From Euglena gracilis (taxonomy: Eukaryota): a stretch of DNA of 64,000 nucleotides. The position numbers and the translations under genes were made by a program. Positions 1 to 48,429 of the stretch are shown here, piece after piece. Numbering within the stretch: the first letter of the stretch is position 1; every line of letters begins with the position of its first letter. The notes under the pieces were generated by a model that worked only from the letters and a program-made list of their open reading frames with translations, was not told the origin of the DNA and searched no databases. The stretch is from contig CP154954.1 of assembly GCA_039621445.1 (NCBI GenBank), forward strand, positions 6,831,425-6,895,424. Reading direction: 5' to 3'.

Positions 1-418
1 CATGGGGTTTGGGTTTGGTTTCAAAATGCTGCTGAAATAATGAAGCCGAACATTACCACATTGCACAGACCCCACACTACACACTGTATACAACGACAGC
101 GAGCCACGACAAGGTTCAAAATATGCGGGGGTTGAGTGGGGTACCCAGCAGGTGGGGTATCCATTGCGAAGCTTGGAGACCTTCATCTACGGGTGGGCAG
201 TTGCCACCCTTTGTGCTGTCCTCCTTGCCATACGCCAGGGTTGGTCCCAAGAGAACAGTCTGTTTTGCAACTCAGTGTTCCAGTATCGACTCTCTGCGTG
301 ATGGGCAAACTGGTGTCCGACCCAAGCCTGTACCAGGTTCAATGGTGGAATTTTGGATTGAACTCGGGCTTTCTGTGGGAGAGAAGAAAGAGGCCAAGAA
401 GCACACTCCCTGACTCCC

Positions 419-3400
419 GGTACCCGCTCCTCTTCGCGGCCGCCAGCAACCAGGTGGACATCGTGCGGTGCATCCTTGCCACCCGGCGCACGACGCGCCG
501 CCGCAAACAACACCACGTCAAGAATGAAACCAGGGTGACGGATCAACCACAGCAGAAACTCCTCTGTGCTGTGCTGTGTCAGAAAGCACCCACCTTTTCA
601 TTGAATTCTCTTCTGGGCCAGTGCTCCAGATTTTTAAGGCATTTCTTTCCAAGGGCGGTCCAAGTGCCATCCCTACATCGGACTAGGCTCAAACCCAAAA
701 AAATAGAAAATTAGATATTTTTTTCCGAAATTGGATGCATTGACATTGTTCCAGCGATTCCATTCCAAATTATTTTTTTCCTGCAGTTTTCCAGATTTGG
801 CCGAGATTCAGCGACTTCATTTTTGCTAGGTTTTCAAACAATTTGCTGGAGTGTTTTTTAAAAGGTCATTACCATTTTTTTTATTGCATGAAAAAAAAAA
901 ACAACAACGGCATGGAACCAACCTCGGCGGGATGCAAGATTCAACAAGGGGCAGCAGGTTGTTGGTGTTGGTGAATTTTTGGTGGCGGGCCCATCTTCCC
1001 TCTGACGATCGATCACCACTGTGGACCGCTTTGGCAACACCGCCCTCCACCTCGCAGTTATCCACGGCCAGGGACTCTCTTTGTTTGTCTGGTGTGCGCC
1101 ACAAACATACAGTCACTCAATCACGAACCGAAAACTCTTTCGGGGGGTTTGTTTTTTACCGAACCCCCCCCCCCCGGTTTTGGCACCGGAAACTATTTCA
1201 GGCAAAAAATTGTTATGCAGGCCCATTGTGAACCCGTGGACCACGTGTGACCACGTGTGACCATGTGTGACCCACCAAACCCACTGCAAAATTAACTGCT
1301 GGGATCGAGACCTCCCGATTCACACGCTGCCCCACCCACCCACGCAAACACTGACTTTTCTCATTTGCTGCTTGGGTGCTGTCCCTGCGGCTGAGCTGCC
1401 GGACATCTACACCCAGCCGCCTCCCCTGCCCCTGTCTTCATGCATTGTTCTTCTTTGGATGTCTAGAGGCCAGAGTTTTGTGGTGAAGCGTTGCACAGCC
1501 CTAACCAAGGAACTACTCAAGCGTCGTTTTCAATGCACCTGAAAGAAGACTCCATTTGGCCCTGGACCTTTCATATTTTTCACCGAATATGTCGATCCGT
1601 CAGCTGTTGGAGGGACTGATGCTGTCGCTCCCCCGAGATGTGGGGGGGATGCTCTGCTTCTCAGCATCCATTGGGAGTCAGGTGGGGCGGTTGCCCCCGA
1701 CTTCGTACTGGAGGAAATGTACCGTTCAGGTTGTCTTTGCCAACAGCATTATTACCCAGCTGAGAAGGGTTGAAAGGTGTTCTATGGTTTTTGTTTTCTT
1801 CGTCGTCTTCGTCATTTTTCTTCGTCGTTTTTGGGTCTTCAGGTCCCAAGCTTTATCACTTCCCTGCTGCTTTGTTTTCCGTTTTGGGACCCCAACACGC
1901 GCGGTAGTATGTTGAATGCTTTACCTCCATGGCAAGGCACACGTTGAACCATCCGGGCATATGTTTAGGGCGTTGTTTGATGAGTTATGATTAACTTCCA
2001 CCTTCAGTCGTTCTCTGGGCCCCTTGTGGTCCCAATCGCTGTGCGTCTGATGCAATCACACCCATCTCGTCTCGTGTTGCTCCGTCTCAACCCACAACAA
2101 GAAATATGTACGAATCATCTTGAGTTGTTCTCGCCAACTTGGTTGCACGCGTCACTCAACTGCAAAGTTGTGCACGTCACATGTGTGGGCACACGCAGCG
2201 GCACGCATTTTGGCTGTGCAATATTTACCCCAGTTTTTTGTTCAGGGGCTTTCGGCCCTCAGGGGGCCGCCTTCTGGAACGGAGGCGAAGCAGCACCAGC
2301 CTGGGTCCGCCAGGGGCTCTCCGCAGTGGACGTCCGGCGGCTCTTCAACGCGGAGGGGCTGACCCCCCTCGCCCTCGCCGCCGCCATGGGGCAGGACCGC
2401 ATGTTCCGCCCAGCCGGCGGAGGTCGTATGCCCCCCCCCCCCGACGACAACCACCGCCGCATCGGTTCAGCCAACCCCTCATACCTACCCCCCCCCCCCG
2501 GGAAACTGTCATGCCCGAGAACCTGTCACGGTCAGGCACCTACGGCCGACCAGGGCCGACTTGCGTGTGGTTTGCCGACCGAAGGGGAATGGATGAAGGA
2601 ATTCGGCAGCTTTCCCTCTGTCTGTCTCCGTCCCCCTCCGGGAGGTGTGTGACTCCCCTGGAGCCGAAGGTATCGTGCCCCTGCTGCATACCTGCGTACA
2701 GCCTCCCCATTGGTGCTGTGTTCCTCCCTGGCTCGTCTGGCCTTTCCTGAGTGACTCCCTGGAGTGGATGCTCCAGTGGGAGAGGGAGGTTATGGGGGGA
2801 ATCTTAAGTTGTGGGATAAACGGGCGACTGTGGTCGCGGTTGTACGCATGTGCATGATCATGTGCATCCGTGGATGCTTGTGGGGCATGTGAATCCGAGG
2901 ATGCTTGTAGGGGTGTGCATACTGTGCACCCCTGATTGTTGGATGCCATGATTGGCATCCAACGAGCCGCGAATTTAATACACAAAGTCGCGAGTTGGAT
3001 GTCGAGGAAGGTTGGCTGGAGGCCAAGAAGCGGGACCCCCGGGAAGTGTGACCCCCCAAAGGCCTTTGCTGACCAGCGTCCTCTCCTTCAGTGGAGGAAG
3101 CTGCGCAGTACCCTTCCAGTGCCCCTACTGTATTTGTGTGCCTGATTCCTGCACGAGTCGCATGCCGCCTTGTGTACAGCAAATAGCTGCAGCCGATGGA
3201 TGCCCTGCCTCCCACCCGCGTGGCAGTGTGCCAGGGGTGTTTTTTGGACAAGCTCGAGAGGGCAGAAGCCCAGTGACGCTGTCATTGACAGTGCTGTCAC
3301 CTTGACCCTGACACTAACCTTCACCTCACCGTGACTGACTCTGTGGCATGCTCTTTTGTAGTGTGGCCGATGCAAAGTGTGAGCAACGAGGATTTTGTGT

Positions 3401-6400
3401 GGATGTGCCTGATGGTTGCCTGGGGGACTAAACCCATTTTTGGATAATTTTCTCACAAATCTCCAGTTTTTCACCCATTTTGGCCATTATGGACCAGTTT
3501 TTGCTAATTTGCGGGCTATTTGTCACTGATTTGGCAAATATTGGGCTAATTTGGGTCAATCTGAGCATTTTTTATGGCATTGTGGCCATTTTGCGCCCTT
3601 TTGGTAATTTTGGGTCATTTTTCACAATCTTTTGTGGATTTTGTTGGCGTTTGTGGGTAATTTTTGGTTATTTCAAGCCATTTTAGGTCATTTTGGTTGC
3701 TTTTGGGGAGCCAGTGGAGGCCTTATGGGGCACTTCCTCTTGATCTTGGCAAGACAATTCAGAAAATCATTGCATCCCTTCACATTTTTTTTCTGTGAAG
3801 GATACCCCCACCTATGGCCGACTATTTGCCGACCAGGGCCGACCAGGGCCGACCAGGGCCGACCAGGGCCGACCAGGGCCGACCAGAGCACCAAAATAGG
3901 AAGTGACCATAGGTGCCTGGTCACGGTCCCGCCCGGGAAACTGTCAGGGTCCCCGGTACCGGCCAACCTGTCAGGGTCATTTTTCATTGACTTTCCCTTG
4001 AAATGCCCTACCCGGGAAACTCTCAGGGTCCCGCCCGGGAAACTGTCAGGGTCCCTGGTACTGGCCAACCTGTCAGTATAGGAAGTTGTCAGGGTCCTCG
4101 GTACTGGCCAACCTGTCAGGTGACAGTTTCCCGGGGGGGGGGGGGTATGACTGCCCCACTTGGTTCAACAGCCAACCAGACGTTTGTGGTGCCGAGAGGA
4201 ACAGCACCAAAATCACAGGAACAGCCTTGCAAGAAATACAGAGACAGCTGCTGAGGACGGCCAACCTGTCATGATTGGAAGTTGTCAGCGTCCCCTGTGC
4301 CTGCCGACCCTGTGAGGTGACAGTCGACCTAGGGGGGAGGGGGGTAGGTAGCTTGGCGAACAGCGTTGAAAAGCATGGGGTTCATCAGCATCTGCCTTCC
4401 GGTGGCTGACCGGAGCACATCCTGGCGAAGTCCTCCGTCGTTGCATGGGATTATGGCCCTGTACAGCTTTGGACGTCTAAACACCCGCCTGAGGAGGTAT
4501 CCACTCAAATCGATCCTCTGGTCTGTGAAAGACAAAAGCCAATGAGAATTTTCGACGTTCTGTGAAAAATTGGCTTTCACAACCCCCCACGCAGTGCACC
4601 TACTGCCTGGATGATTGACGCTGCTCTTGTCCACCCCCGTGTGCTTTTCATTTGTCAAGCAGCAAAAGTCGACCGATGGGGGGAACATGGGGAGTTTTTA
4701 TGTTGTTTGTGTCAGGAGATCTGCCCGAGTTTCTTGCTGGAACCATCCCAAAAGGCGATTTCTCTCCATTGCAAAATAGTATCTCTCTTACAATGCCAAT
4801 TTCAACACATGAAAAAGCTGTATTTTTTGTAAAAAATATTTAAAGACATGATTTTTCAGGAGGTACCCCCCCACTATGTCCAACGACCCCCCTATGTCCA
4901 ATGACCACCCCCCCCCCCCGGTCAGAGGACACCTTTTCGGAGGTTTGACCCAATTTTTGGTCCCGGTGTGAAGCGCCGGGACGAAAAATTTTGCCCAAAC
5001 ATTGGCCAAAAATTTGGCTAAAATGCCATTTTTGACACTTTTTGGACAAAAATTTGTCAAAATTGCCCAAAATTTTCGGCGCAAAGCGCCGGAAGGGAAA
5101 ATTTGGGCATTTTTGGGTGGGTAGGGACCCGGGTACCCAGCAACTTTCTTTTGACCCCATGTCCAACGACCACCCCCCCCGGTCAGAGGACACCTTTTTT
5201 GGTCACTACCCTATGTCCAACGACCACCCCCCCGGTCAGAGGACAGAGGTCATTGGACATAGGGGGGGGGGACGTTTAAGTCGAAGGGTTAACCTACATG
5301 TTTTGGGAGGTATTCATTGTGGAGAGGTTTATTTGCCCCACCCTTCGAGGTATTCCTTCCCGAGCAATTAAAAAAAATGTACCTGACTTCCTGTCACTCC
5401 AAAAGCTACCACAGCACCCAGGTGGCTTAAAATGGACCCCCCAGACATGGACCATGAACCAAGTAGACCTCCGCCACGAAAGGAAGACCTCCTGGGCTGA
5501 CCAAATAAAAGTCCAGAATCAACCCCCCATTTAAGACATCAACTAAATGATCGAAGCACCAGGATGATGTGGGAGAAATCGCTGATTATTGTCCCAAAAG
5601 CCCATTTGGAAACACAGTGAAAATGTTTGATGTTCTAGCAACAGATGCAAAAACAACATTCTTGGGTTACAAAAACTCTTTGCTAATTTCCCGCCAGGTA
5701 AGGATTTTACGCCTAACCTTGGACCCCCTCCCATAATTGCCCCTCCCTCAAATGGACCTTTGGAAGCACTGGGTCCTGGAAAGAAGGTGCTGGACCTAAA
5801 CCACGACATCCCAGGCTGACCCCATCACCTGCAAGCTGTTTCCCCTTGGAGGCCTTGAGCAGCCGTTCATTGACACGAAGACTGGAGTAGCCGTGAAGAC
5901 TGCCATTGCTTGCCTATGTTCAGGGGCCCAAAATCCCACTCAGGCTTGGGGAACAATTTTTTTTTAGATTTCTTTCATTGACTTTGGTCCTGACCATGAA
6001 CACACCACAAAGGTAACCAAAAACCACAATAATGTTTGTTATGTGGTGATGATTTACACAACAGCTGGTAAGGCTTGAAAAAACAAACACAGAATGCGAT
6101 ATTTTAAATATAAGGTTCAATTTTTCAAATGAATGACAACAAAGGAATGGCAAACAATTAATATTTAGATGTGAATGGTGGAATTGCGAAAAAAGTATTC
6201 AAATATTGACAACAGTAATGCCTGATTTTAACTTTTAAGGGGAGTAGGTGGGTCCCCCCCAGGAGGGTAATTGAAACCCCAAAGTGGGCCCCTGACCGCC
6301 TCCCCCCCCCCAGGGGTGGGGGTACCCCAGGCTCAGGTATGAGGAGGGCGTACGGGGTTTATGTCAGGATTGTCCTCCACCCCCCCCCTCCTGGGCCTGA

Positions 6401-9400
6401 GTGGGCGCGTGCCAGGGTGGGTCCAGACCAACCCCAGGGGGGTTACCCCCTCCTGAAAGGCCAAAATTTTCCTTTCGGTGCTTACCGTCGAAAATCTTTT
6501 GCATTTTTGAAAAATTGTTGTCCAAAGAGTGTGCCAAAAGTGGCACTTTTTTGGCCATTTTGAGTGTGAAAATCGGAGTCGAAAATCGGTCGCCCGGACC
6601 GTGCCATTGTTCAGGTGGGGTCCCAGACCATAGGGAGGGGAGTCCTTGTGGACCCCCCATCTGCCTTTATATCGAAACCTGGGGCACCCCCCCCCGTTCT
6701 TAAAAGGAAGCCTAACACATGCCCACGCACAAACCCACACTGTGCTCCCACCCACCCACACAAACACATACACACACATACCCGCATGTATGTGTTTATT
6801 CAATACATTTCTATACATATTTGATTTTTGGTTGTTTTTTTTCGACATCCTGATTTGGGTGTTGCCGGCCGGATTGTATTTTACCCACAGATGGATGCCC
6901 ATCCCCCCCCCTGCCTGGCCCTGTCACACAGTGCCTCAAACTCGCAGACAGCCGCATCCCCCGTCACGTGGAGCAAGTAAAGTGGTTCCGGTTGGCACGC
7001 GTAAGTCTTTTTTTTGCTCACATTTTTAGCATTTTTTTGACACAAAAAATGTCGGCATAATGCAAAAAAATAATATAGGTAAACCCCAGTTTATTATTTA
7101 AACACTCGAAGTCGTGGTCCAGGGGGAGGTTTATTATTTGGGGGGTTATTATTTGGGCAAAGTTTTCGAAGTAAAAAATCGACCCGAAAACCAGGTTTTG
7201 AATAGAGCTGAGATCTTGATGGACACGTAATGGAAAGCCGAAAAGATTGCAAATTTCGTGTAATTTATGATTTATAAATTGCACACCTGCAGTTTACGGT
7301 AACTTTCAGTGATTTTACAGTTATTTCTGAAATGTTACCCCCCCCCCATGTTCCCCATACCCATTTTCTTGGATTTTCTGACTGTTTTGAACCAGTAATG
7401 ACCCAAACTCCATGGGTTTCGGGCCAGAAACAGGGGGCGGGGGGGGTCGAAAAACGCTCATTTTTGGCTCGAAAACAGGTTTTCCGGGTCTGGGAGGCAA
7501 GAAAATCATCGCTTCGGGCAAAAACATTTTCGATTTTTTTTCGACTTTTTTTTTAACCCAAAAATGGCCTAAAATCTCATCAAAATAGGCCAAAATTGTA
7601 CAAAATGGTCAAATCAGCCACAATGTTGTGGGGAAATCGAGGTACTGTTGGGTAGGGCACTTTTAGGGCTTCTATTTGGGTCTCCCGACATTTCCTTTGT
7701 CTTTGCTTCATTTCCAAGATGCCTTGGAAGCATCGGTTTTTTTGACCCCGAACACGCCCAAAATGGCTTCTGAAATGGGCCAAAATTGGCCGAAAAATGG
7801 CTGTAACTCGGGCTACACGAAGAGTTGGGGGAAAGGTAACCATGGGTGGATAGGGCATTCCAAGGGCTTCATTTTTGCTCTCTGGACATTTTCTTTAATT
7901 TTGTTTCATTGTCGAGATATTTTGGAAAAATCATTGTTTTTTTTTGAGCAAAAAAACGGCCCCCAAATCACCCCAAATTGGCTGTTTTGGGCACAAAAGT
8001 GCGCCGGAACAAAACAGCAACCGGGGGGCGATAGAGGGTCTCCAGCGGCACATTTCGTCAGACCGACTCTAACAGAGATAATGCATGTTTCCTCGAGATA
8101 TTTTTGAAAATTTGTTTTTTTGACCGATTTTGACCGGCGAAATGGCAGAGTCGGAAGAAGGGGGCGGGCCAATCCTACCCAGTTTGGACCCCTTCGCGGC
8201 TGAATAACTCGGGCCTGGTGGGGAGTTGGGTCAAACGGAGGAGATTCGGAAATTAGAAATCCAGTCGCTCGCGAAAAAAAAAATTCCGGGAACCAGGCGA
8301 GATCATGGTAATCCGCCGGTTCCCGAGGTTGCCCGAACCCCGCGGGGTTCGGGGAGGGCGGGGGGGGGTCTGCCCCCCCTTTTCCCCAGGGGTACCCATA
8401 AAGGGATAAGAGCTCAGTCTAAAATCAATTTTGGCCATTTTGTACTGTTTTGGCCTGTTTTGGCGTGGCAATTTTGGGGCGTCTTTGGTCAAAAAAAAGT
8501 TTAAAAAATCTGATGTTTTTTTGGCCTCCCGGACCTGGAAGACCTGTTTTTGATCCGAAAATGAGCGTTTTCTGACACGCCAGCGCCCCGTTTTTGGCCC
8601 GAAACCCATGGACTTTCGGTCAAAAACAGGTCAAAAAAGTCGAACTGAAATCTCTGAAAGTCACTGTAAATTTGCAAGTGTGTCATTTGTAAATTATAAA
8701 TTGTGCGAAATTTGCAATGCTAGTCTGTTCGGCCTTCCATTACGTTCAAATCTCATTAAGAGCTCAGCATTATTCAAAACCTGGTTATCATTTGGGGGGT
8801 TTACTGGAGTTTGACTGTTTTTTTTTTTTGGCACATGGTGGTTTACAAAATTTTTTTAAACCTTACATCGGAGTTTGTTTGTTTACCTTCGGTCTGTGTC
8901 ACCTGCAGACAAAGCTTTGCACCAGTCACCGCCGGAAGGAGCATCCCAAAGTTGACCTGTGTCCACGTCCGAGCCGGCAACTTTAGCCAGCCCTAAACAA
9001 ACTCCGGGGCCACGCGCCACGCCTGGACCTCGTGGTCAGCGCGGAGGTGCGGCAGGTGCTGGACAAGAAGTGGGACGCGTTCGGGCAGCGGATGTTCTAC
9101 CGGAAGCTGGCGGTGGCCCTCGGCACCGTGCTGGCCTGGACCGCCGCCAGCATCGTGCCCGTCCAGGGGACCTCCGACGCTGTTTGTCAATGAAAGTACA
9201 TTGAGCAAACCCACTCCGAAATTTCTTGGGTGTCTTGTTTACAAACAAAAAAACTGCCAATGTTGATCTCGCTCGCGTAGCAACCTCTTTGGTTTGCTGT
9301 CTCGGCTAGAGAAGGCTTCCTTTGGAAGGCCCTGTGTGCATAAACGTAATGTTTTTTTGTTAAAGTTGCGATCTGGAATGGCTGGCAGAGCGATCCTGAA

Positions 9401-12400
9401 TCACGTCAGATTTTGGATTACTCCTCAGCCCGAATCACTTCTTCATATGACTGCTGGTGGACTCAGTCACACAAGTAGCTGTTTGTCACGGATTACTCTG
9501 CGCGCCAACCATTATCGCTGCGCCGGTCACAGCCCAGAGGACCATTCAGGCTGGAGCGGTAGCCGCAGAGAGATGAGTTGAAAACCTTTGAAAAAAAATT
9601 GGTGTATTTTTCTGTTTTTGCTGGTTTTCCTTTTGATGATGCACAGTGTTTTTATTCCTCTTCAGTTGAGAGTCCCACCCCCCCCTCGCAGCTCTGGTCT
9701 AGGCCCACCCGCTTGCCAACCTCGTCATCCGCATGCTGGAGCTGCTTGCCCTGCTGCCTGTCATGTGGCGGGCAGGCTGGTTCGCCTGGAGCTGTCGCCC
9801 ATCCAGCCGACTGCGTGTCGCCGAGGGAGACTTCTGGCCTCTCCCCATCCCGTTGTTGATGGGTCGCTTTCCGGAGCACCTATGACTTTTGTTTTTACCC
9901 TTTGTGGAATTTGGTTATTATTAATTAATTAATTATTAATTATTATTAATTGTTCAGCTGGAATTATCATTTCTACAAGCACATAAGCCCGTGCTGACGT
10001 AGGCGCGGAAATAGCCAATCCGGGCCAGGAGTCATCGTTCAATTCCCCTTTCCTCTCCAAGCACCTCTGATGATGCTGGGCGATGCTGGGCGATGCAGGG
10101 CGATGCTGGGCGATGCTGGGCGATGCTGGAATTTTGGAGACCAGAGGTGGGGTTCCGATGCTGGGCGATGCTGGGCGATGCAGGGCGATGCTGGGCGATG
10201 CTGGCATTTTTTTTGTACATTTTGAAGAATTAAACCCATTTCTGGGATAATTTCCCTACAATTCTCCAGTCTTACACCCATTTTGGCCATTATGGATCAA
10301 TTTTTGCTAATTTGGGAGTTATTTGTCACTGAGTTGGCAAATATTAGGCTAACTTGGGTCAATATGAGCATTTTATGGCATTGTGGGCCATTTGGTGCCT
10401 TTGTGGTGATTTTGGGTCATTTTTCACAATCTTTTGGCGTTTTTGGGCATTTTTTTGTTATTTGAAGCATTTTGGGTCGTTTTGGTTGCTTTTTGGGGGC
10501 TTTTTGTGGTCAATTTTGGGTTTTTGTGGTCATTTTTGGGCTTTTGTGGTTATTTTGGCTAGGTTGGGTGCCATTGGATGAATACTGGACAGATTCTGGA
10601 CAAGATGCAGATGCTGGACAAGGTGCAAGCGTTGGACAAGATGTACATACCAGACAAGATGCCGATGCTGGACAAGATGAAGTGGATGTAGATACTGGAC
10701 AACAGCAGATGGTGGACAAGATGTAGATACTGATAAGATGCCGATGCTGGACAAGGTGCCGATGCTGTACAAGGTGCAGATGCTGGACAAGATGCAAATG
10801 CTGGACAACATGCAGATGCTGGACAAGATGCAGATGCTGGACAAGAAGCAGATACTGGACAAGATGAAGTGGATGCAGACACCGGACAACGTTGCAAATA
10901 CTGATAAGGTGCCGATGCTGGACAAGGTGCCGATGCTGGACAAGATGCAGATGGTGGACAACATGCCGATGCTGGACAAGGTGAAGATGCTGGACAAGAT
11001 GCAGATGGTGGACAAGGTGCAGATGCAGACGCCATTTTGCTGTGTCCTTCCTTGGTTGTTGTTGGTATAACCTCTGAACATTTACACTCACCGCAGATCC
11101 AGCCTTGTCTAGGCGGGGTGTTTGGTCGACACCCCGTTGCAATTGCAGGGGTGCCACCCTCCACCCTCTAGCACAACAAGTGTTTTGGTATCTGTTTGTC
11201 TGACCGGCAAGAGGCTTGCAACTTGCACTCGATGTTGCCATCTCATAGGCCTGCACACCACATCTTGTGCTGCCAAAAAGCAGCAAAAGTGGTCAAAAAG
11301 TGGTCAAAAAGCAGGCAAAAGTGGGACAAAAGTGGTCAGAAAGCAGCAAAAGTGGTCAAAAAGCAGGCAAAAGTGGGCAAAGGTGGTCAAATAGCAACAA
11401 AGTGGTCAAAAAGCAGCAAAGGTGATCAAAAAGCAGCAACAATGGCCAAAAGTGGGCAAAAAAGTAGCAAACGTGGGCAAAAGTGGTCAAAAAGCAGCAA
11501 AAGTTGTCAAAAGTGGTCAAAAAGCAGGCAAAAGTGGTCAAAAGTGGTCAAAAAGCAGCAAAAGTTGTCAAAAGTGGTCAAAAAGCAGGCAAAAGTGGTC
11601 AAAAGTGGTCAAAAAGCAGCAAAAGTGATCGAAAAAGCTGCAAAGGTGGTTGGAAATGGGCAAAAGTGGGCAAAAAGCAGTAAAAGTGGTCAAGAAGCAG
11701 TCAAAATTGGTCAAAAGGCAGCAAATGTGGCCAAAAGCGTTCAAAAAGCAGTCACAGTGGTCAAAAAGCAACCAAAGATGGCCAAAAGTAGCCAAAAGTG
11801 GGCGAGAGCGGCAAAAGCAGGCATAAAAGGTACACCTTCAAGGGCTCCAAAGGCGATGCTGGGCGATGCTGGGCGATGCTGGGCGATGCTGAGCGATGCT
11901 GGGCGATGCTGGGCGATTCTGGGCGATGCTGGGCCTAGGGGCATGGATGACCAGAGGTGCTTGTTCCTCTCCACCCTGCAGCCTCCCAGCGGCTATCCAA
12001 CGATCCCTTGTCAAAAAAAAAACGGCCCCAACGGCCCGATGCACCTCAGCGAATCGTGCGGGTGCAGATTCCGAGTATTGCATCCAGGGATTTTTTTAAG
12101 TTTGGACCCCCCGGGGGGGGGTAGGGTGGGTGGGTCCGCCGGACCCCCTCCCCCCGGGGGGGGGGGCCCCCCCGGGGGGGGGGGGGGGGGGGGATATACT
12201 TTTCGGCGCCGCAGGCACCGAAAAAATTCTATTTTTAGCACTTTTCGCGATTTTTCGGCCATTTTTTTTGTGGGTCCCCCGGGACCCCCTCCCCCCCCAG
12301 GGGGGGTGGGTGGGTGGAGGGACCCCCCCTCCCCCCCCCCGGCCTTAAAAAAACCCCTGATTGCATCGCAACCTTTAAAACCAGGGCAGAGTTGGCCATT

Positions 12401-13848
12401 TGTCACAGCTGGAGAACGAGAAGTGCATCGTGGGCATTCAGAGAACCTCCCCCCCCCCTGCCTAATTGTTCAGCCCTCAGGCAGAGGGTGTCCCGTGGGT
12501 GCCCAGCAACCCTCCCCCCCCTGACTGACGCCTCCCTGCTCGGGAGACCCACGGCGCTGCGTCGGTGGAGGCGGCGCTGGGCAATGTGTTCCGCAGCCTG
12601 TACCTGGCCTCCCTGGCGTTCCGCCCAGCGCGACCATCGGGTTCTGTAGTAACAGGGAGGAGGAAGAAGTTCGCATTGAGGGAGAAGCTCTTGCAATTGA
12701 AGAAATGACTGTTTTTTCGTCCCTCTGAAGGCACTGGGTGTCGATTTGGTAATTTCCCATTTCCCCTCTCATTCTTTCTCAATGGTTTCCCCCCCCTTTA
12801 CTTTCTTTTCTGTTAAAATTTTCAGTTTTATTTTTCTATTTTTTTATTTATATTTTCTTCAATCCAATGGTCATGGCAAAAAAAATTTTTATTCTTCTCC
12901 TGCAGACAAAATAGCACTGTCCAAAACGGAGGTGTAAGGGCAAGCAGGGACTATCACCTGCACAGGTCTTGCTGCACGCGGTTCGCGGAAGAGCCAATGC
13001 TGGTTGATGTCACTGCCGCCTTTGCCGCTCTGACTGGCTGGCTGCATGTGTTCTTCTTCCTGTGCAGAGCGCTTCGGCATTGTTTGATCGATTTTTAGGT
13101 GACGATGTACGAGGCTGTGCTGCGATGGGTTGATGTCGGTGTTTGTTTGTGTCGGTCTGAGTTTACGCAGGGGTATGGATCTGTGGTGAGCAGGTGGTGG
13201 TCCGCCCTTCCAGGCCGTGCAGTTGTGGAATGGCGGTGCTCGCCTTCGTATTTCTTTTCAAAGCCGCAGTTTCCCTGTCACTGCTCGGCTTCCGGTCCAC
13301 GGGACCCTTCGTCATCATGATCAAGGAGATGGTGCAGTACGGGCTGGCCTGGGTGTGGAAGGACATCCACAGTGATCAGCTTGGAAGCGATCCCCCGTAT
13401 AACGACCGATTAGGGAGGATACCAGGGACCCTGACAACTTCCCCGTGACAAGGTGGCCGTTGCCAATGCCCCTGTGACAGTTTCGTGATTGGGCCTCGAC
13501 ATTCCAACGGTTTTGACTCAAACAGGTCGGCCAGTACACCGGCAGGGCAGGGCCGTGGGGGTGGGCACCCAGGTGCAGGCGGCGACCTCCGGCGCTTCCT
13601 CTCTGTCAACCTCGCCGTGCTGTTCGGCTTCACCATGTCGCTCCACATGCTGACCTCCAGCGCGGAGCACTGCGGCTTCGACGCTTTTGCGGAGCGCTTG
13701 TGTCCAGGGTGTGGGACGGGGCAACCACTTTTTTTTCCAAAGCACACCAACCATTCACCCCCCCCCCCCCAGTCGCCTAGGCTGCACTATCAGGGCAAGC
13801 GAGGACGAATTAATTTATGAATGAACATATATATAGTAGTTTACCATT

Positions 13849-13881
<33 letters not shown>

Positions 13882-15843
13882 ACAGAAATATATAATTATA
13901 TTATTATATTATTGTATTATATCCCTCTTTTATTCGACTGGCCGGTGTTTGGTTGACCCAAGGGTTTTATGCTCCAGCGAGATGTCAAGTATTCTGCTCC
14001 ACTCTTCCAGGCTTACCCACGGGCCCCCAAAGGGTGCACGGTCCACTCTGATTCCATTTTTTTCCGGTAGGCTCTCTCCACCCTCTGCTGACGGCAGTTG
14101 GTGCTGCTGGGGCTGGTGGGCGATTTCCCGTTCAAGGAGTACAACGAGCGTTTCACGGGGGGTCGCATGCTGCTCATCGAGCTGCTGTTCACGCTGCCCA
14201 GGTCACATGGGTGTGCAAGTTGCAGGCTGGCTGTGGTTTTTTGTCCATTGCTACCATCTGATTTCTCATGATGTCATCACCATGCCTTGTCGTGAGTTTT
14301 TTTTTTAAGCTGTGACTGTGAGAGTCTGGCAAACACTGGAGCAGAAGCGACCCGTGGGCAATATACACCATGGACCTGCTCCCGTATATAATTCTGGTGG
14401 TAATCCTGCTGCTGAACCAGGCGGACTGCTCGTTCTTCAGTTTCTTTCCTTTTTTATTACGTGCATTTTTGTATTTTTCATTTTTTACACTCATATTTCA
14501 AGTGACGTTGAACCAAACCCCTCCTCCCAGATAAACACTCAAGAAGGCACTGGATGCAACCAAAAACTGAGAAACTCTGGGAAGCTGTTCGGGCATTCCC
14601 ATGAACTCTGAGCAGGCTTCTTTTTTGGGGGGTGGGGGTTTGGGCAGGCTCGGGGGGGGGGATCGAGTTTTGGGGTGGGTTGCATTTTTGCCCCCCAGCT
14701 CGAAAATGCCATTTCGAGGGCATTTTGTCTGGGTCCACAGGCACCGGGGCCAACCCCCACCCTGGGGGGACTGCTATGGGCAGGCACCCGGTCGTACAAG
14801 GCACCCCCCTACCCCCGTGGTTAAAAAGAAGCCTGACTCCGAACCCCCCCCTTCCAGGGAACAGTTACAGCCGCCTGCTCACAACCTGCTCATCGCAATG
14901 ATGGGCAACACGTACGCTGCAGTGCAGGACCAAGCGGAGAAGCGGTGGTACCTCGGGCCAGGGGATTTCTCAGCCGGTACCGACCTGGGGCCAGCCATTT
15001 AGCACCTTTTCCCCAAGCCAACAGCTCCCAAGGGCTGCAGGGGGTTGAAATGAGGTTGTGTCCCCATTTTCTTGCAAAGCGATGAATGAATTTATGAAAG
15101 AAACTTATGGAAAATGGCTTTGTGTGTTTTGCCAAAATGTGGCCAATTACCGGTCCAGTTTGACCTCACAGGCAGTTGGCCACTCTTTTGTCGTCCACTG
15201 GCAAATATGACCTCTCCCCGCTAAAACCTCACAGGTTTTTTTTTGTTGTGAATTCCTTTAATTTTCACTTTCAAACGCTGGCTTTTATGTCTTCAGGGCC
15301 AAAATAATCAAACAAGCTAGTTTTAAGGAAAGGTCTTCGGCTAGCTGTTGACCCGACACCCAATCAACCAACCTCAATTTGGGATGCAATGCCTCACCCT
15401 TTGGGCCACGGCAGATTCCTAAATTTCCGACCCAATTTTCTGGGGGATTATGTTTGTTCCACGAGCCTGGCAGTCTTTCCTGGAGCCTCTGGAGGGGTCC
15501 AGCCAGCAGTTTTTAGCTCTCAATGTACCGGCTGACCCTGCAAAGTCTTTAAGGATTCCCCTGCTTGCAGCGCGCGAACCTCATGGTCAGGGGGTGGCAG
15601 ACAGGCGCAACGCACTGCAATGAAATGAGTTTTGTCGGCATTTGGAGCAGGGGCATGGTTGCATATGTGAAAATTTTGCATTGCTGCAGCTTCCGATTCA
15701 TGGAAGCTTTTGTGGCAAGAAATGCTTGAAGGTCCATCGGTTTGTATTCACAATTTTCTTGGCAAATGGACCCATATCAAGTTCATTTTTTCCAGGTTTT
15801 GTGGGGAATTATTCTGACCTTGAATTGATATGCATTGTATCAG

Positions 15844-15875
<32 letters not shown>

Positions 15876-16029
15876 CGGTGGAGTGCTGCTGGGGCAAGGG
15901 GACCACCTGGGCCGCCCTCTGCCACGGGCGGCGTACGAGGCGGAGCACACGGTGGATGAGATGCAGCAGCTGCGCAAGCAGTTCGCCACGCCCTTCGGCC
16001 AGTCCGACGCCGCCGTGACCCGGGACACC
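419..16029 (+). CDS. TRPV-like (TRPV5/6, Nanchung/Inactive-like) ankyrin-repeat cation channel, paralog 1; 5'-partial, multi-exon, C-terminal exons unresolved
   Basis: Exons ~419-548 (YPLLFAAASNQVDIVRCIL), 1011-1065 (DRFGNTALHLAVIH), 1393-1410 (ELPDIY), 1699-1723 (DFVLEEMY), 2309-2407 (NAEGLTPLALAAAMG), 4414-4460 (HILAKSSVVAWDYGP), 5824-~5925 (ITCKLFPLGGLE), ~9012-9160 (VLDKKWDAFG + S1), ~9507-9562, 9702-~9769 (S2), 12544-12622 (S3), 12980-13061 and 13283-13331 (S4, LGFRSTGPFVIMIKEM), ~13579-13701 (GDLRRF, S5), 14093-14195 (pore, LLGLVGDF), 14384-14414 and 14883-14955 (LLLNLLIAMMGNTY, S6), 15569-15584 (ERANLM, TRP box), 15927-16029. Phases join correctly at most junctions and the motif order matches the TRPV family. 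Confidence 0.92.
3829..3886. repeat. (GACCAGGGCC)n decamer array
   Basis: Five exact tandem copies plus a partial copy. Confidence 0.9.
3920..4346. repeat. Dispersed repeat family with GGCCAACCTGTCA / CCCGGGAAACTGTCA motifs
   Basis: Motif clusters recur at ~2490-2560, ~13410-13540 and ~44630-44820. Confidence 0.65.
4866..5271. mobile_element. MITE family A (CCCCCTATGTCCAA TIR, TA flank)
   Basis: TIR cccccactatgtccaacgacc / ggtcattggacataggggg; near-identical copy at 63519-63938 and a related copy at 20915-21357. Confidence 0.88.
7076..8817. mobile_element. Non-autonomous foldback element with long (~350-490 bp) imperfect inverted arms
   Basis: 7190-7320 is inverted relative to 8640-8785 and 7405-7505 relative to 8520-8618; ends gtaaaccccagt / actggagtttgac. 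Confidence 0.8.
10070..11935. repeat. Composite minisatellite block in a TRPV intron
   Basis: (GGCGATGCTG)n at 10070-10205 and 11850-11935; 18-bp GATGCAGATGCTGGACAA units at 10590-11030; AAAAGTGGTC/AAAAGCAGC units at 11275-11820; 10230-10500 resembles 3430-3710. Confidence 0.9.
12085..12359. mobile_element. MITE with CAGG...CCTG termini and perfect 8-bp TSD (hAT-like)
   Basis: TIR cagggatttttttaag / cttaaaaaaacccctg; ATTGCATC at 12077-12084 and 12360-12367. Confidence 0.9.
14613..14835. mobile_element. MITE of the same CAGG...CCTG family, degenerate 8-bp TSD
   Basis: TIR caggcttcttttt / aaaaagaagcctg; flanks ACTCTGAG / ACTCCGAA (6/8). Confidence 0.8.
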
Positions 16030-16305
16030 GGGCAGGGCGTTACTTGCCATTGTCGCGCACCTGCCAGTTTGTCATGCTTGCACGCTACCCCTTGGGGCTG
16101 TATTGTGGAACTATTATGCCAGAGTATTCGGCCTTTTCGGATCGTATTTCAGTATCCTTTTATGCTTGTGTTTCGCTCTTTGTGTTTCGCAAAATTCGGC
16201 TCACAGGAAAACACAAAAAATGACGACCACCCAAACCTTGTGAGAAAATTTTTTCTGTCGCTGTAGCGACTTCGTCTGCATTCCGCAGTCCCCGAAGCGA
16301 ACCTA

Positions 16306-16529
16306 TTAACCCCCCCCCCCCCAAATAACCCCCCGGGGTGTTATTTGGGCACCCGAACTGGGGCCCCGGGGGGGGGGGTGTGTTATTTGGGGGGGTGTTA
16401 TTTTTACATGGAAAACCAAAGGAAAACAGGGGGGGGGGGTGTTATTTGGGCGCTCGAAATCGGCCCCCGAGGGGGGGGGGTGTTATTTGGGGGGGGTTAT
16501 TTGGGGGGGGGGTTATTTGGGGGGTTTAA
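16306..16529. mobile_element. Small MITE with GTTATTTGG subterminal repeats
   Basis: ttaacccc...ccaaataacc / ggttatttggggggtttaa. Confidence 0.7.
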
Positions 16530-18509
16530 CAATGCATAGTTAATAGGTGTGTTTCCATTGTTGGCGTTTGTACTCTGCATTTTTAGTTTACAATTTGTGA
16601 AAATTTTGTAAAAATTGTAAAATTGTATAAAAAACCCAAAATGGTAAGCAAAGGTGGGGACTCAGAGGCTGTTGTTGGCGGCCGTAGCTGCTTGTGCCCT
16701 GAGACACCTCGCCTCCACTCCCCAGTCAGAGAGTGCAGGGTAAGGGCCGTTGCAGGTGGCTTTGAAACTTAGGTTGTTTTTGGCACCCAGTCGTGCGACC
16801 ACCACCTGGTTGGGGGTCGCATATGACCCCTTCTGTCGGGGGTTTTCGGTTGTTGCTGATGAATGATGTTTTTTGTACCCTGCCCCTGGCCAGCCCAGAT
16901 GTCAGCTATGTCAACTCGACAGGACCAAAACTCCTGTCGAGTTGGGTCTCAGCTCAACAGCCAACTCTTCAGTGGTGGTTTTTCGTCGCCCGCCCCCCGC
17001 CCCCCGCCCCTCAGCTCCCCTAGTCACAGCCGAGGGGCAGGCTGGATGAACGCCATGGCGTGGAGTTCTGCCTCACCACCACCGTGCGATCCGAGGAGTG
17101 GAAGCTTTCGTCAGCAAGGCGGGCCGGCTCACCCACTGGGCCGCTGGCCGCCGACCGCTGAGGGACGGTGGACGTGGAAGGCACAAGATGCCACCTTTTC
17201 TTCCATTGGATGATGGGTGTGATTCATAAGCTGGATGTCATCTGATTGTGGCCAAGACAGCACAGGAAACTTTTTTTTTAGTGTTTGGCCGGGAGCAAAT
17301 TACATATTTTTTGGGGGTTTATAATGATGGTTGGGTGGGTATGGGACTTGCCAAAGCTATGAATTGTGTATGCTATTCACCCTTTGACCGCGTCAACCGA
17401 AATCCCGCTTCATGTTTTATTGTCCCCAGCGTGGGAGGGGGTTCGTGCCTGGGCAGTCATTTGCGAGAGTGGTCAAGCGTTGAAGAACTCCATTTCTGGC
17501 TGCATGGCACTGGCCTTGTTCCCATGGATATTGACAACCGGCCGGCGGCCGAGTGGCACTGACCGATGACCCACCGCCCGCCTCTCCCCCGTGACCGTCG
17601 CCGTCCCTGAACCCAACCCTCCCCCTCCCGCTGTAGTTATTCCGCCCATTTGTCCCGGGGCTCCTCCGGGCCCCGGCCCCGCACTGCGCGGCTCAGTGCG
17701 TCGTCGAAAGCGTTGCGAGGCCCCCTTTCGCTCGCCGACAGGGCGTCAGCCCTGCGGGCTGGCGGCGGAGGGGGGCTGGCCACCTGAGCGAAACCAACCA
17801 TCTCCGCGAGCTCATCTGGCCCCCTCGATGCTGTCCACCCAAAATCGTCCTGCGTGCAATCAAGGTTCTCTAACACCCACTTACCCTCCTCGGTCGCAGG
17901 ACATTTTTCAGAGTTTGGCCAGATTTTCAGTGTGTTGCAAATCCCGTCTTGAAAAAGTTTTCTGCCAAAAATCACTTTATGCTTAAAATACCATTTGGGG
18001 CACCATATTTTGGCGATTTGTGGTGTTTGAAAAAAGGGGGGGGATAATTCCCATATTGTGGTTTGCAAATTGGGAAATTGCCTGGGGTGTACTTGTGTCA
18101 TAAAGTTGAGCCTCCATTTCGGTTTGGGGAATGTGTGCATGGGTATGGGAGATGGGTGACTGGGGGGGTTGAAAAGCTGGTTATGTGCGTTTTTCTGGGT
18201 GCCAGTAGGTGGTGGTGTGCATGCCATGGTTATGTTTTGTGCATAGTTGGAAGGAAGAGTGAGTACATGCAAGAGTTGCTTACAAAGGTATTCATAACCC
18301 ACTCCACTCACCCGGCAGGTTTGGTTGCAGGTTTTTTTGATTGAAAGCCAGGGGAATCCCTTCAACAGTGGCTAACAAAAGAACATTGCTGCGCATTATC
18401 TAATGAGGGTTTGTGTGTGAATGGATGCTCAATCCCCCGATAATTTCTTCTCCTGATGACGATTTGGCGCGGCCCTGGCAGGGACATGTTTCCAGTGCCC
18501 CTGCGCCGC

Positions 18510-18554
18510 GTGTCCCATTTCCCACCCTGCGCCCCCCCCCCCCAACTTTCGCAG
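18510..18554 (+). promoter_or_regulatory. Putative spliced-leader trans-splice acceptor (pyrimidine tract + CGCAG) shortly before the b561 ATG
   Basis: C-rich tract ending ttcgcAG 12 nt before the ATG. The same arrangement is at 30120-30145, and a similar one at 40070-40097 before the coiled-coil gene. SL trans-splicing is established for euglenozoans. Confidence 0.5.
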
Positions 18555-18566
18555 GGGCTGTTGAGA

Positions 18567-21500
18567 ATGCAGTTTGCCGCACAGGCTCCGGAGGTTGGGC
18601 AGGCGGAGTACTTCACGCCGACGCCCGAGGTGTACGTGTACCCGGAAGAGCCACAACCTGAGATGGGGAAGTGGCCCGAAGGTGTGCTCCACTCCCGTCT
18701 TTTTGTGCTTCACCCTTGTTCATATCCGTGTCTCAGTGAATTGACTTTTTCTTAATTTCAATTTTGATTTGTTCATAGGGTATAATGCAGCAACACGATG
18801 GTGCAGGAGTGTTCCTGTTTTGAAAGTAATGCAATAATTTTCAGAATTGTAGAATACTTTATTCCACACGCTTTTTCATTTGGACAGGCTAATGCTCTTC
18901 TTGTTGCATTTCTGCAGAATCCCTTTTATGACTCCACAGAGGGCCAGCCAGAAGTATCCCCAACCTCCCGCCCGTGGCATTGGTGGCGGTGGGTATTGTG
19001 GAGCAGACCAACATTTGGTGGCAGTCACCAAAGATACCGCAGGCAAATTATTCCATGTTATATTTCAATTAATGCATTCATTTTTTCTTGTCTTGGGAAT
19101 TAATACATTCGTGCTATTTTTATTATTTATTTGAAACAAATAGCATGTTTCAGCTTATGTATATTTGATGATTTTTTTTTTAACACGCAGTAATACTCAA
19201 TGAAATTTCCTCCTTCCCCATCTCCAAGGGCCACCCCGTCCTGACCCATGGTTTTTAAATTCTTTAAAAGAGCATTTTTTTGTGTCCTTTTGTGAGATAT
19301 TGCTTTACATTTTTCGCCATTATCATCAGAATGTTTTAACGAGATTTTTTTTGATTTCTCCCCCACTTATTGTTCCCGCCGTCCAATGTCCAGCACCTCC
19401 CTCCCTTCCCTGGTTATGGCGGGATTTATTAAAGGATGGACCATGGGGGACAGGGAGGGTCGGTGGGTCCGCCCACCCCCCGGGGGGTTGCTTCCAAGTG
19501 CGTTGTGGGTCCCCCACAAGGTTCTGGCTTTTTTGCCTTTTTTTTTCGGTGCAAGGGCTCCAAAATTTTTTGACCCCGTATTTGACCTCAAAAATGTCCC
19601 CCCAGGGTGGAGGGGCGCTCTCTTGGATGGGCGGGGTTCCCCGTGGTGTCTGTCTTATGACCACATTTCCGGTGTACCCAACCAATGGGCCGGGGGTGGG
19701 TATTTGTTGGCCCTGGACGCCCGATCCGATCCCCCGATCCCCCCCAACGTCGCCTCTGCAACGCTGGCCTGAGGCGGGCGCTGCCCCGCCTGCTGCTCGT
19801 GCCCTTCCTCGCCCTGTTCTTCCTGTGGGTGTTCAACGCCGAGGGGGGCGTCGGGCTCGACGCCTCCAGCCTCTTCGGCCTGCACGCCGTGCTGATGGTC
19901 GTCTTTGTGCTGCCCAGACCCTCGGCCCCCACCGATGGCTCATGGTGCAACGCGAATGTGCGGTGAATGGGTCTCAAGCGCGACTGCGTTTTTTGGAAAA
20001 TCGTATTGGACAGCATGTTGAGGGGAAAGGGCGCGCGTCACGCAAACTATTTCTTATAGTCTTTTATGTTTCTTATAACACATTTTTTCTAGCAAAAATT
20101 ATTACTTGAATTTCCAAAAAAGGTTGCCATTCTTTCAGTTTCCTCAAAACAAAGCAGGGGGGAAAGTGCTTGGGAAAAAACCTAAAAAAAAACTGGTTGA
20201 ACACAATGAGAAATCTTTTGCGGCAATATAACTCTATACTAAATATAATATATATTTAGCTCTATAATCATATCAAAGGTTATTTTTATATAAATTTAAT
20301 TAATAATTTTAATAATATATATGCATAATTGATAATTGGAATATTAATAATATAATCATATAATTAATGATTAATTTCAATTTAATTAATTTTTAATATT
20401 TTCTAGGCTTTATGTGATTTTTTGGGGGGGGCTGCATAAACCATTTTCTAGCTGAACCTTCACAGAGAGAAGCCAAACACCGGTCGATAACTATGGGAAA
20501 ATATGTGGGCATTTCAGTGATTTTAACATTTTTGTCTATGGTAATTTTTTGTATGTCATGCACTTTAGAGTTCAAGCCTAATTCTTCGAAGTGGTTGCCA
20601 CCGACATAAGAATTTTCGCCAGCATCCTTTTATTGTTGTATCGTTCCTGAACTTTTTTTTGGATGTTTGGTGGATGACTGCCTGGGGCCTTGTTCCGATC
20701 TGCATGCAGGAGGCCCTCCTTGTCTATTCCGTTCCGCTTTTCGGGCCTCTGCCGGTTCCTCGAGCTGCCTCCAAGTATGCCGCCCCCAACTCGACGTGGC
20801 TGTGATGTGGCAACGCTGCATTGGAGGCTGGCCAGTGTTGAGGCCGGGGGTTGCTTAACACGGGTGTTGCGTACCGCGCAGAACCCCAACGTTTCCGCAA
20901 TCAAAGCTGCAGTACCCCCCCCCTATGTCCAACGACCACCCCCCCCCGGTCAGAGGACACCTTTTCGGAGGTTTGATTTTTTTTGCAGGTGTGTGAAAAC
21001 CGGAGGTTTGCCAGCCCTGAAAGGCTTTTCTTCCGCCCTTCGTTTGCATTTCCTTTGCATGTTCTCTTGTCCTGATCTCCGCAACAAAATCGTCCAAGGA
21101 TGTCAGTTGTGGGTGCTATTTTAAGTAAATATTTGTTGACAGGGCTGGAAATGGGGGCGCGAAGCGCCGGAAGGAAAATTTTGACCTGTTTTGGGGGGTT
21201 TCCGCAAAAAAAATTTTCCCGACCCTGTGTCCAACGACCATCCCCTCCCCCCGGTCAGAAGACACCTTTTTGGTCACTACCCTATGTTCAAGGACCCCCC
21301 CCCCCGGTCAGAGGACAGAGGTTACCGGTCGTTGGACATAGGGGGGGGGGGAGGGGGTAAGGTGGGTTGAAGTGGGACCAGGATCAGTGTCTAGTAATTG
21401 GCTGGCCAGTGGACCCCAGGGTCCTCAAACAAAAAGCTGAGTGGGACAGACATTTACTGTTGAAATATACCAAATGCTAGGCGACTCATCTCGCTATTAA

Positions 21501-24500: not shown

Positions 24501-25618
24501 CCCACCCCCATCCCCCCACCTTTCGGAAAAATTGGCCGAAAATGGCTGAAAATGGCTGAAAATGGCCGAAAATCTGGGTGTCAATTATAGGAGCTTGGTT
24601 ATCAAAAAGAGAAGAACAAAGCTTTGGAATTTCGCTACATAACGCTTTCCCCCGATTTTTAAATCCATCCAGAGGCCCACTGGGTGCAAGTATCTACCAC
24701 ACTCATGAAACTGACACATTTGCGAAGAAAAAGAAGTAGTATGCTTTCTCCCTGCCTAATTACTCGTATTAAATATTTCCCCAGGCATACTTTTTGTGCC
24801 GAGCTAGATGTTGTACTGGAAGGACTTTGGAAACCAAAAGTTTGTCTGGCCCGTTGCAACTGGTTTTTTCTCCGGGGGTGGAGGGGGTCCGGACAAGGAA
24901 GCTCCGCAGCTCACCCATGCCCCCGGGGTCCCCCCCCCTAGTTTTGGAAGGGGATCCCCTCCCTCCCCCCTCCTCTGCGTGGGCAAAAATTTTTCCGGGT
25001 GTGTATTTTAGGACTCTTTTGAGGCTCAACGTGAAATTTTGGCAAAATGGCAAAAAATGAACGTACCTGCAACCTCCACCGTTATGAAATTGCACCTTTT
25101 TTGGCTTTTCGTTTTGTTTTCGCCCCTAGTGGTACGACCCCCCCCCCGTTCGGGCCGTTCGGGGGTTGCAGGAACCTGGTCGTTGGACGGGGGGGGCAGG
25201 CGGGGAATTGTGTTAATGCGGGAATGCTGTTAGACAGGGTATTTTAAGGGCTTCAATTAAAACAAAATGCTGTTAAACAGGGCATTTTCAGGGTTTCAAT
25301 TTGGTTCTTTGCATTTCCTCTGATTCCCCGCCATTTTTGAGAAATTCCAGAAAAATTGACCCAAAAAACCGGCCTAAATTTTCGGCGACCGAAAACTGGA
25401 GCCCCCTAGTTTTGGAAGGGGGTCCCCCCACTCCCCCCCTCGGAGATTCCCATACAACCCTACCCCTCCCCCCCCCTTTAATACCCTGCTCGCAAGTCAT
25501 GAGGGGCAGAGCAAATTCCGGTCTCTCCGCATCCGCATCCACGTCCCAGCCACTGTGTGCCTGTCTGTTGCTGGTGTTCATCGGGATCGCCACGTTCTTT
25601 GTCCAGCTTTTCAAGTGA
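18567..25618 (+). CDS. Cytochrome b561 (transmembrane ascorbate-dependent / ferric reductase family), copy 1
   Basis: Exons 18567-18650 (MQFAAQAPEV), 18912-18941, ~19665-19686 (FPVYPTN), ~19764-19911 (TM1, LFGLHAVLM), ~20697-20749 (CMQEALLVY), ~22040-22212 (VHAFFH, YTPHSWV), 22536-22551 (TLQLLG), ~22894-22939, ~23591-23707 (FHRFFG), 23839-23949 (Met-rich loop), ~25555-25618 (TM6, stop). All four heme-ligand His motifs of b561 occur in order. Confidence 0.88.
20915..21357. mobile_element. MITE family A, present only in duplication copy 1
   Basis: Same TIRs, TA on both sides; empty site visible near 32140 in copy 2. Confidence 0.85.
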
Positions 25619-27649: not shown

Positions 27650-28128
27650 CACCTGCCCCCCCCCCCCCCCCCCGGGCAATTGATGCCCCCGGGCGATTGT
27701 CACCCCTGGGTGTGCCGGCCAATTTGTCACCCCTGGGAAATTGTCACCCCCCTATGTGCTGCCCAATTCGTCCCCCCCCCCACACAGAAGTTGTCTGTGA
27801 ATGTTCTCTTCGCCGACACGACTCGATTGGTCTGCTATTTTGCTACAGCGTGCTGTGAACTTTTGCATACCAAATGCTCTGCACAATATCACAACCATAG
27901 CTGCATTTTTGCTTGTTCAATTGCGTTTTTGATGGTGTTTTTGGTCATTTGTTTTTAATGTGGCTTACATGGGTGGGCAATTGACGCCCCCGGGCAGTTG
28001 ACGCCCCCGGGCAGTTGACGCTCCTGGGCAACTGTCTCCCCCCCTCTGTTCCGGCCAAATTGTCACCCTGGGAAATTGTCACCCCTCCCGTGCTGCCCGA
28101 TTTGTCGCGCGACAATTGCCCGGGGGGG
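27650..28128. mobile_element. MITE (CCCGGGCAATTG TIR), present only in duplication copy 1
   Basis: ccccccgggcaattg / caattgcccggggggg; absent at the matching site near 38390. Confidence 0.75.

Positions 28129-48393: not shown

Positions 48394-48429
<36 letters not shown>

Follow-up and report, generated by a model that had tools for sequence, protein, structure and literature searches.

The nonconventional (NC) introns of euglenids account for ~70% of E. agilis introns, and their origin was still called unclear in 2025 (PMC12501133). A 64,000-nucleotide (nt) stretch of the Euglena gracilis genome (contig CP154954.1, hereafter the window, with positions given in its own coordinates) raises the question of whether such introns can be born as transposon insertions. 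Four or more DNA transposons of the cut-and-paste type, all non-autonomous, are present in the window; their terminal inverted repeats (TIRs) read CAGG...CCTG, and they make an 8-bp target-site duplication (TSD). In its consensus form, an NC intron begins 3 nt before a CAG and ends 5 nt after a CTG, and 3 + 5 = 8. On balance, we consider it probable that these elements are hAT-like and that their insertions into exons are born as NC introns.

Elements with CAGG...CCTG ends and 8-bp duplications

Three of the elements (M12085, M58162 and M14613; Table 1) had been proposed in a sequence-only reading of the window, and they are as it described them: 12085-12359 and 58162-58613 have CAG/CTG ends and perfect 8-bp TSDs, and a 6/8 TSD is present at 14613-14835 (ACTCTGAG at 14605-14612, ACTCCGAA at 14836-14843). 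M2533 is an additional element with a perfect TSD. The repeat is exactly 8 bp long in two elements, because adjacent bases do not prolong the match, and that of M2533 is also readable as 9 bp.

The association of these ends with duplications exceeds chance. When all CAG...CTG pairs lying 40-3000 bp apart in the window were scanned (n = 69,430), identical flanking 8-mers were found in six, against ~1.06 expected under uniform composition. Inverted complementarity of the first and last 14 nt reaches 11/14 or better in 167 pairs; of these, flanks agree at 8/8 in three and at 6/8 in one, and none of the 167 reaches 8/8 at offsets of 8, 16 or 24. With a looser threshold (at least 9/14, n = 2799), flanks of at least 7/8 occur in seven pairs, compared with control means of 2.1 (26 offsets) and 2.11 (200 re-pairings, maximum 6). 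A trinucleotide control for the inverted repeats was dropped, being swamped by simple repeats.

Read evidence was available for positions 1-20000 and consisted of two probable RNA contig sets (X1 and X2), a raw RNA run (X21) and a DNA run (X17), with 15 of 635 joints listed. The elements have the properties of MITEs (miniature inverted-repeat transposable elements), being short, non-coding and multicopy with TIR and TSD; three measure 223-452 bp and M2533 reaches 1387 bp. M12085 and M58162 have common ends and subterminal G/C palindromes, and their family comprises three copies within the window. The third, an older partial copy at 30979, has an uncertain 3' end and a counterpart near 19420 in cytochrome b561 copy A; it predates the b561 gene duplication. 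The M2533 family is high-copy, the X17 depth of its bins being roughly at least 1000 times that of single-copy bins, and its X17 joints lead to other genomic copies. M14613 looks low-copy at 95% identity and is present in X17 as a contig over 14592-14932 with zero differences. Reads piling up at 12156-12323, inside M12085, are poly-G loose ends. When metagenomes were scanned with 24 nt from an element end, a single match, attributed to chance, came up in an unrelated AT-rich contig; an Rfam search gave no match.

Two further observations concern the same families. At 48204-48218, the 5' end of M14613 (CAGGCTTCTTTTTAA) recurs in identical form on its own, with no 3' end to match, beside a G/C-run region that is duplicated in tandem (48120-48913). 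The block at 10006-12006, a high-copy repeat that itself contains tandem repeats, is related to the M2533 family, because DNA contigs of other copies join 2620 straight to 10058.

Table 1. Elements, duplications, introns and genes of the window
Feature	Positions	Strand	Description
M12085 (MITE, 275 bp)	12085-12359	.	ends CAGGGATTTTTTTAAG / CTTAAAAAAACCCCTG; G/C-run subterminal palindromes
Left TSD of M12085	12077-12084	.	ATTGCATC, same as 12360-12367
Right TSD of M12085	12360-12367	.	ATTGCATC
M58162 (MITE, 452 bp)	58162-58613	.	TIR CAGGGGTTCTCTTAAG, 3' end CTCAAGAAAACTCCTG; family of M12085
Left TSD of M58162	58154-58161	.	ATTGCGCC
Right TSD of M58162	58614-58621	.	ATTGCGCC
M14613 (MITE, 223 bp)	14613-14835	.	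TIR CAGGCTTCTTTTT, 3' end AAAAAGAAGCCTG
M2533 (non-autonomous, 1387 bp)	2533-3919	.	TIR CAGGCACCTACGG, perfect TSD GTCACGGT at 2525-2532 and 3920-3927
Older partial copy, M12085 family	30979-31216	.	in b561 copy B intron I2; ~first 60 nt close to M12085
NC intron of g1	2408-4413	+	GCC CAG...CTG ACCGG then A; RNA joint 2407>4414
NC intron of g1	4461-5823	+	GTA CAG...CTG ACCCC then A; RNA joint 4460>5824
GT-AG intron, b561 copy A	18682-18939		basis: loose ends and transcript protein
NC intron I2, b561 copy A	19001-19776	+	GAG CAG...CTG AGGCG then G; paralogue 30594-31316
NC intron I3, b561 copy A	19912-20696	+	GCC CAG 5' end, degenerate CTTG 3' end; paralogue 31452-31942
Predicted NC intron of g2	57850-58720	+	GAT CAG...CTG ACCAG then GAC; TSD-register flanks 7/8
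g1, ankyrin/TRP-like gene	~385 to at least 17.8 kb	+	
g2, ankyrin/TRP-like gene	~57.5 kb to window end	+	paralogue of g1
Cytochrome b561 genes	18567-25615 and 30158-36555		tandem paralogues

Elements and duplications reproduce the NC splicing code

The signals required for NC splicing have recently been tested experimentally. In the consensus, CAG follows the first 3 nt of the intron and CTG stands at -8; the experimental code reads 5'-N3CDG-/-CH'GN5-6^R (with ^ for the splice junction and R for a purine), the 12 nt after CAG must pair with the 12 nt before CTG, and fully artificial 50-bp introns made to this code are spliced (PMC12501133). The 3 + 5 = 8 arithmetic of the sequence-only reading agrees with this code. 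All four elements, taken with their TSDs, conform to it in silico in either orientation. Their terminal pairing is 10-12/12 counting G-U pairs (11/12 in M12085, 12/12 in its reverse orientation), and N5 is followed by a purine in all eight cases (four elements, two orientations). In the predicted RNA fold of M12085, both ends close into one stem (minimum free energy -191.2, z = -3.5).

The junction rules fit the same scheme. According to the published rules for NC introns, the last base is a pyrimidine (Y) in the upstream exon as well as in the intron, and the first base is a purine in the intron as well as in the downstream exon (PMC4770533). TSD position 5 is Y and position 6 is R in the four elements, and position 3 is also Y in all of them. 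Under the TSD model, these paired Y/R rules would simply be positions 5 and 6 of the duplication seen twice.

An element that lands in an exon would give a transcript of the form T1-5^T6-8-CAG-stem...stem-CTG-T1-5^T6-8, which would supply the whole code: a 3-nt spacer, CAG, ~12 nt of pairing, CTG, a 5-nt spacer and a purine. Cuts 3 nt before and 5 nt after the element would remove it together with one copy of the duplication and restore the original mRNA, whatever the orientation. Since element plus TSD fits the code both ways round, an exonic insertion should be excised with exactly one duplication copy, and this exact removal means that such insertions would be born as NC introns. Duplication and inverted repeats would then erode over time, until only the weak consensus known from the literature is left. 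We infer that insertions in exons do get spliced, that this is how many NC introns arose and that the elements are hAT.

The elements therefore resemble the NC introns described in euglenids (Milanowski 2014, 2016; PMC12501133) in their CAG/CTG, end pairing, 3/5-nt spacers and purine, all reproduced by element plus TSD. They differ from them in that no splicing of the elements was observed, in their apparent location inside other introns, in stronger pairing (10-12/12 versus 7-10/12 in verified introns) and in flanking 8-bp repeats that are perfect.

Which transposons are they?

The 8-bp TSD and the CAGG ends point to the hAT superfamily. The likeness to hAT transposons of the Ac/Ds type lies in the 8-bp duplication (three perfect, one 6/8) and in short TIRs starting with CAGGG or CAGGC. 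hAT TIRs have a YARNG-type terminus, which CAGGG (M12085, M58162) matches throughout and CAGGC (M14613, M2533) at 4/5 positions. The elements differ from hAT in their target sites, where the hAT consensus, nTnnnnAn, fits only four of the eight half-sites, and in the transposase: no transposase domain was detected (Pfam, E ≤ 0.01) in the 20 searched of the 24 window open reading frames (ORFs) of at least 200 amino acids. Because no transposase was found, the hAT label is a purely structural one. Of the hAT-like MITEs of the sequence-only reading, real transposons with TIR and TSD thus remain, but these ORFs yielded no hAT transposase, and the autonomous hAT that it proposed to look for did not emerge from them. 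PMC3935182 cites a case of Ds functioning as an intron.

The same mechanism could operate with another superfamily, namely a non-hAT transposase that makes 8-bp duplications, such as Merlin. E. gracilis itself has two Merlin families, both with an 8-bp TSD (PMC8101967), and this candidate also gains from the absence of a transposase in the ORFs searched and from the fact that no paper linking Euglena with hAT was found in the literature searched. However, Merlin TIRs end in 5'-GG with a TSD of 8-9 bp (PMC8101967): the duplication length agrees with the elements described here, the termini do not, since CAG/CTG adjoins the duplication on both sides. We consider a Merlin-like source unlikely.

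M12085 and M58162 sit in target sites that match at 12/15 nt, GNGT-ATTGCNNC-GCA (12073-12084/12368-12370 and 58150-58161/58622-58624); homology beyond ~15 nt is not significant and the wider flanks are unrelated. This likeness could suggest the reverse direction of events, in which excised intron circles (N3 + intron + N5) are copied to DNA and re-integrated at junction-like sites, so that the 8-bp repeat would be a recombination product and not the trace of a staggered transposase cut. NC introns do leave as circles (PMC11282704; PMC12501133, citing another paper), and the repeats of M12085 and M58162 both start with ATTGC, as if the junction travelled along with the element. Yet repeat positions 6-7 differ jointly in both flanks (ATTGCATC twice versus ATTGCGCC twice), in keeping with a separate duplication event at either site, and a circle junction would not account for the resemblance that extends beyond the 8-mer (GT in front, GCA behind). 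Besides, the older copy of the family occupies an unrelated target site, TAGTTATG, unlike those of M12085 and M58162. Such a reverse route is, in our view, very improbable.

NC introns of the window and the search for duplications

Do the NC introns of the window carry traces of a duplication? RNA evidence and transcript protein define five intron positions, four NC and one GT-AG. The joint 2407>4414 was found in X1 and X2 contigs and in 17 X21 reads, and that of intron 19001-19776 in 94 X21 reads (slide 2) and through the transcript protein P0001; these two joints and that of 4461-5823 occur in RNA only and not in the DNA run. Intron 19912-20696 was recognized from a loose end at 19912, matched at 20698 through P0001. 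The claim of the sequence-only reading that most introns have 3 nt before a CAG and 5 nt after a CTG is borne out exactly in three of the four RNA-supported NC introns, but the fourth combines N3-CAG with CTTG, and the fifth intron is GT-AG. A purine follows all four NC introns.

Paralogy and reading-frame continuity give nine further NC introns, for a total of 13 at eight independent positions. The exact N3-CAG...CTG-N5 arrangement is present in 9 of the 13 introns (seven of the eight positions), and a purine follows in all 13. Of the remaining four, two have a 3' spacer of 6 nt, in one case together with CGG in place of CAG, and the other two are the paralogous copies of I3 with CTTG. As the code itself partly guided the choice of the nine added introns, they are no independent test of the geometry. 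The two introns with the longer spacer are old and lie at 61401-62596 and 528-1010, and their variants agree with those in the 2025 code (PMC12501133).

Across the eight positions, the flanking 8-mers, one ahead of CAG and the other behind CTG, agree at a mean of 3.4/8, versus 2.4 in 146 re-paired combinations. The comparison proposed by the sequence-only reading is thus fruitful at one position, 57850-58720, where the flanks agree at 7/8 in the TSD register (ACCAGGAT before CAG, ACCAGGAC after CTG), but the other seven positions stay near the re-paired control. Excision of this predicted intron joins GENILHIAIIHQ to DVELVRWLLDRHPELLNAETT and leaves the ankyrin-repeat register unbroken; we estimate a chance of ~0.015 that one of ~20 real introns attains 7/8. 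Three other 7/8 candidates were treated as chance: 4117-5831 and 6328-6681 clash with RNA-defined exons or are without exon support, and 44339-44932 lies in a T-run.

A published case bears on the same point. A newly gained NC intron of gapC, confined to a single strain of E. agilis and showing all NC features, has eight-nucleotide direct repeats at its junctions, which the authors read as break repair (PMC4770533). It is the young-intron case foreseen by the duplication hypothesis. The published figure of 84.4% 'slidable' introns was not used as evidence, as our own arithmetic gives ~44% under independence and ~75% from the R/R and Y/Y rules alone. The duplication interpretation is therefore well motivated and partly supported by two cases, one predicted here and one published, which stop short of demonstrating it.

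Several points weigh against an origin of NC introns from hAT-like exonic insertions, besides the missing transposase domain and the likeness of two target sites, which is not expected from a plain hAT model. None of the four elements is itself an intron gain, as they all seem to be located in introns and not in exons: M2533 is nested in the RNA-verified NC intron 2408-4413, M58162 in the predicted intron 57850-58720, and M12085 and M14613 are probably intronic, between RNA-covered parts of g1. No excision of a whole element from RNA was seen among the 15 of 635 joints listed for positions 1-20000; the absence of joints 12081/12365, 2529/3925 and 14609/14841 among those listed is no evidence either way. 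Seven of the eight intron positions have no clear 8-mer repeat and, with intron 57850-58720 set aside, the mean flank identity is 2.9 against 2.4, which is not distinguishable from the control. The predicted intron itself has no RNA support, because reads were placed on positions 1-20000 only, and it carries modest weight since it was found by a scan for flank identity. The two paralogous introns with a 6-nt 3' spacer and the one with CTTG mean that the 8-nt sum is not kept in old introns. Finally, the RNA fold of M14613 is no better than that of shuffled sequences (z = -1.5).

Some of these points would also suit a mere coincidence, in which the elements are ordinary transposons with no part in intron origin, NC introns arise by other routes such as double-strand-break repair, as proposed in PMC4770533, or conversion of conventional introns, and both the CAG/CTG ends and 3 + 5 = 8 are chance agreements. 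The seven positions without a clear repeat, the apparently intronic location of the four elements and the reading of the 8-nt gapC repeat as a repair footprint (PMC4770533) are in keeping with it. CAG is, besides, a common transposon terminus. Against chance stands the joint agreement of terminal trinucleotides, terminal pairing, spacer sum and R/Y at TSD positions 5/6, together with the in-register 7/8 repeat of the predicted intron 57850-58720; moreover, break repair leaves inverted-repeat ends unexplained. We hold a coincidence to be quite unlikely.

The transposon origin may extend further. We suggest, as a tentative possibility, that most Euglena NC introns descend from hAT-like elements, that the 3/5-nt spacer rule is a fossil of the 8-bp duplication with the shared Y^R as TSD positions 5^6, and that transposon and RNA excision form one matched system.

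The b561 paralogues were also compared for filled and empty sites, which revealed no clean CAG...CTG insertion and only other element types. Two insertions found in copy A only, neither CAG-type, are a 479-bp element at 27651-28129, whose 16-bp ends (CCCCCCCGGGCAATTG) are perfect, and a 182-bp element with GCG..CATCTCGC ends at 21476-21657.

Relation to previous proposals and to introners

A transposon origin of NC introns, assumed by the sequence-only reading to have been suggested in general terms, is indeed in print, but more explicitly than it supposed. A MITE origin was proposed in 2013 (PMC3935182), CAG/CTG were named TIR and the junction repeats TSD in 2024 (PMC11282704), and a MITE-like origin was restated in 2025 (PMC12501133). 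In the literature searched, which lay outside subscription journals and supplements, we found no description of the 8-bp or hAT link, of 3 + 5 = 8 or of free genomic copies. The present work turns the general MITE-like idea into a countable prediction: an 8-bp duplication split 5^3 at each junction, CAGG/CCTG ends and hAT-type elements. The 'slidable' introns, which a genome-wide study had discarded, are the class expected to carry this signal.

The closest parallel is found in introner elements, the MITE-derived spliceosomal introns of algae, dinoflagellates and tunicates (PMC11282704), where a non-autonomous DNA transposon creates an intron and the element is removed with the duplicated target, restoring the mRNA. 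The proposed system differs in two respects: removal would occur by the non-spliceosomal, circle-forming NC pathway, and both splice signals would come from the inverted repeats at a fixed 3/5 nt, not from a GT/AG made by the insertion. If true, transposon-driven intron gain would extend to a non-spliceosomal pathway, and each new insertion would come pre-equipped for exact removal in either orientation.

Genes and other repeats of the window

The two b561 copies have 72-98% DNA identity in blocks and intron positions in common, intron 1 being GT-AG and introns 2 and 3 nonconventional. Exon 19778-19912 is 100% identical, over a 45-amino-acid query, to the E. gracilis protein EG_transcript_54240 (EukProt), which marks the window as nuclear DNA of this species. 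Ankyrin matches of the short exon pieces of g1 and g2 are weak and sub-threshold; for the exon before 57850, the top-ranking PDB entry is the TRPV channel Nanchung (E = 0.13), and the following exon has no related match. One exon, at 14856-14948, resembles a pore/TRP box (NLLIAMMGNTY). The protein database searched yielded no E. gracilis protein for the TRP-like gene, and Pfam gave no match for 10 ORFs at 12.8-18 kb. Protein searches with the TRP-like exon and b561 exon 5 also gave no match, so several introns can only be inferred.

A palindromic module, TTTTCGGCGC-GAAG-CGCCGAAAA, recurs at 12200-12240, 48320-48345, 48670-48700, 5075-5095 and 21160-21175, within element families of differing ends. 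A very high-copy MITE-like family with poly-C/poly-G and TATGTCCAACGACC inverted ends is found at 4866-5269, 63520-63938 and 21156-21350; it is not CAG-type, possibly has a TA duplication, and shows the top DNA depth in positions 1-20000.

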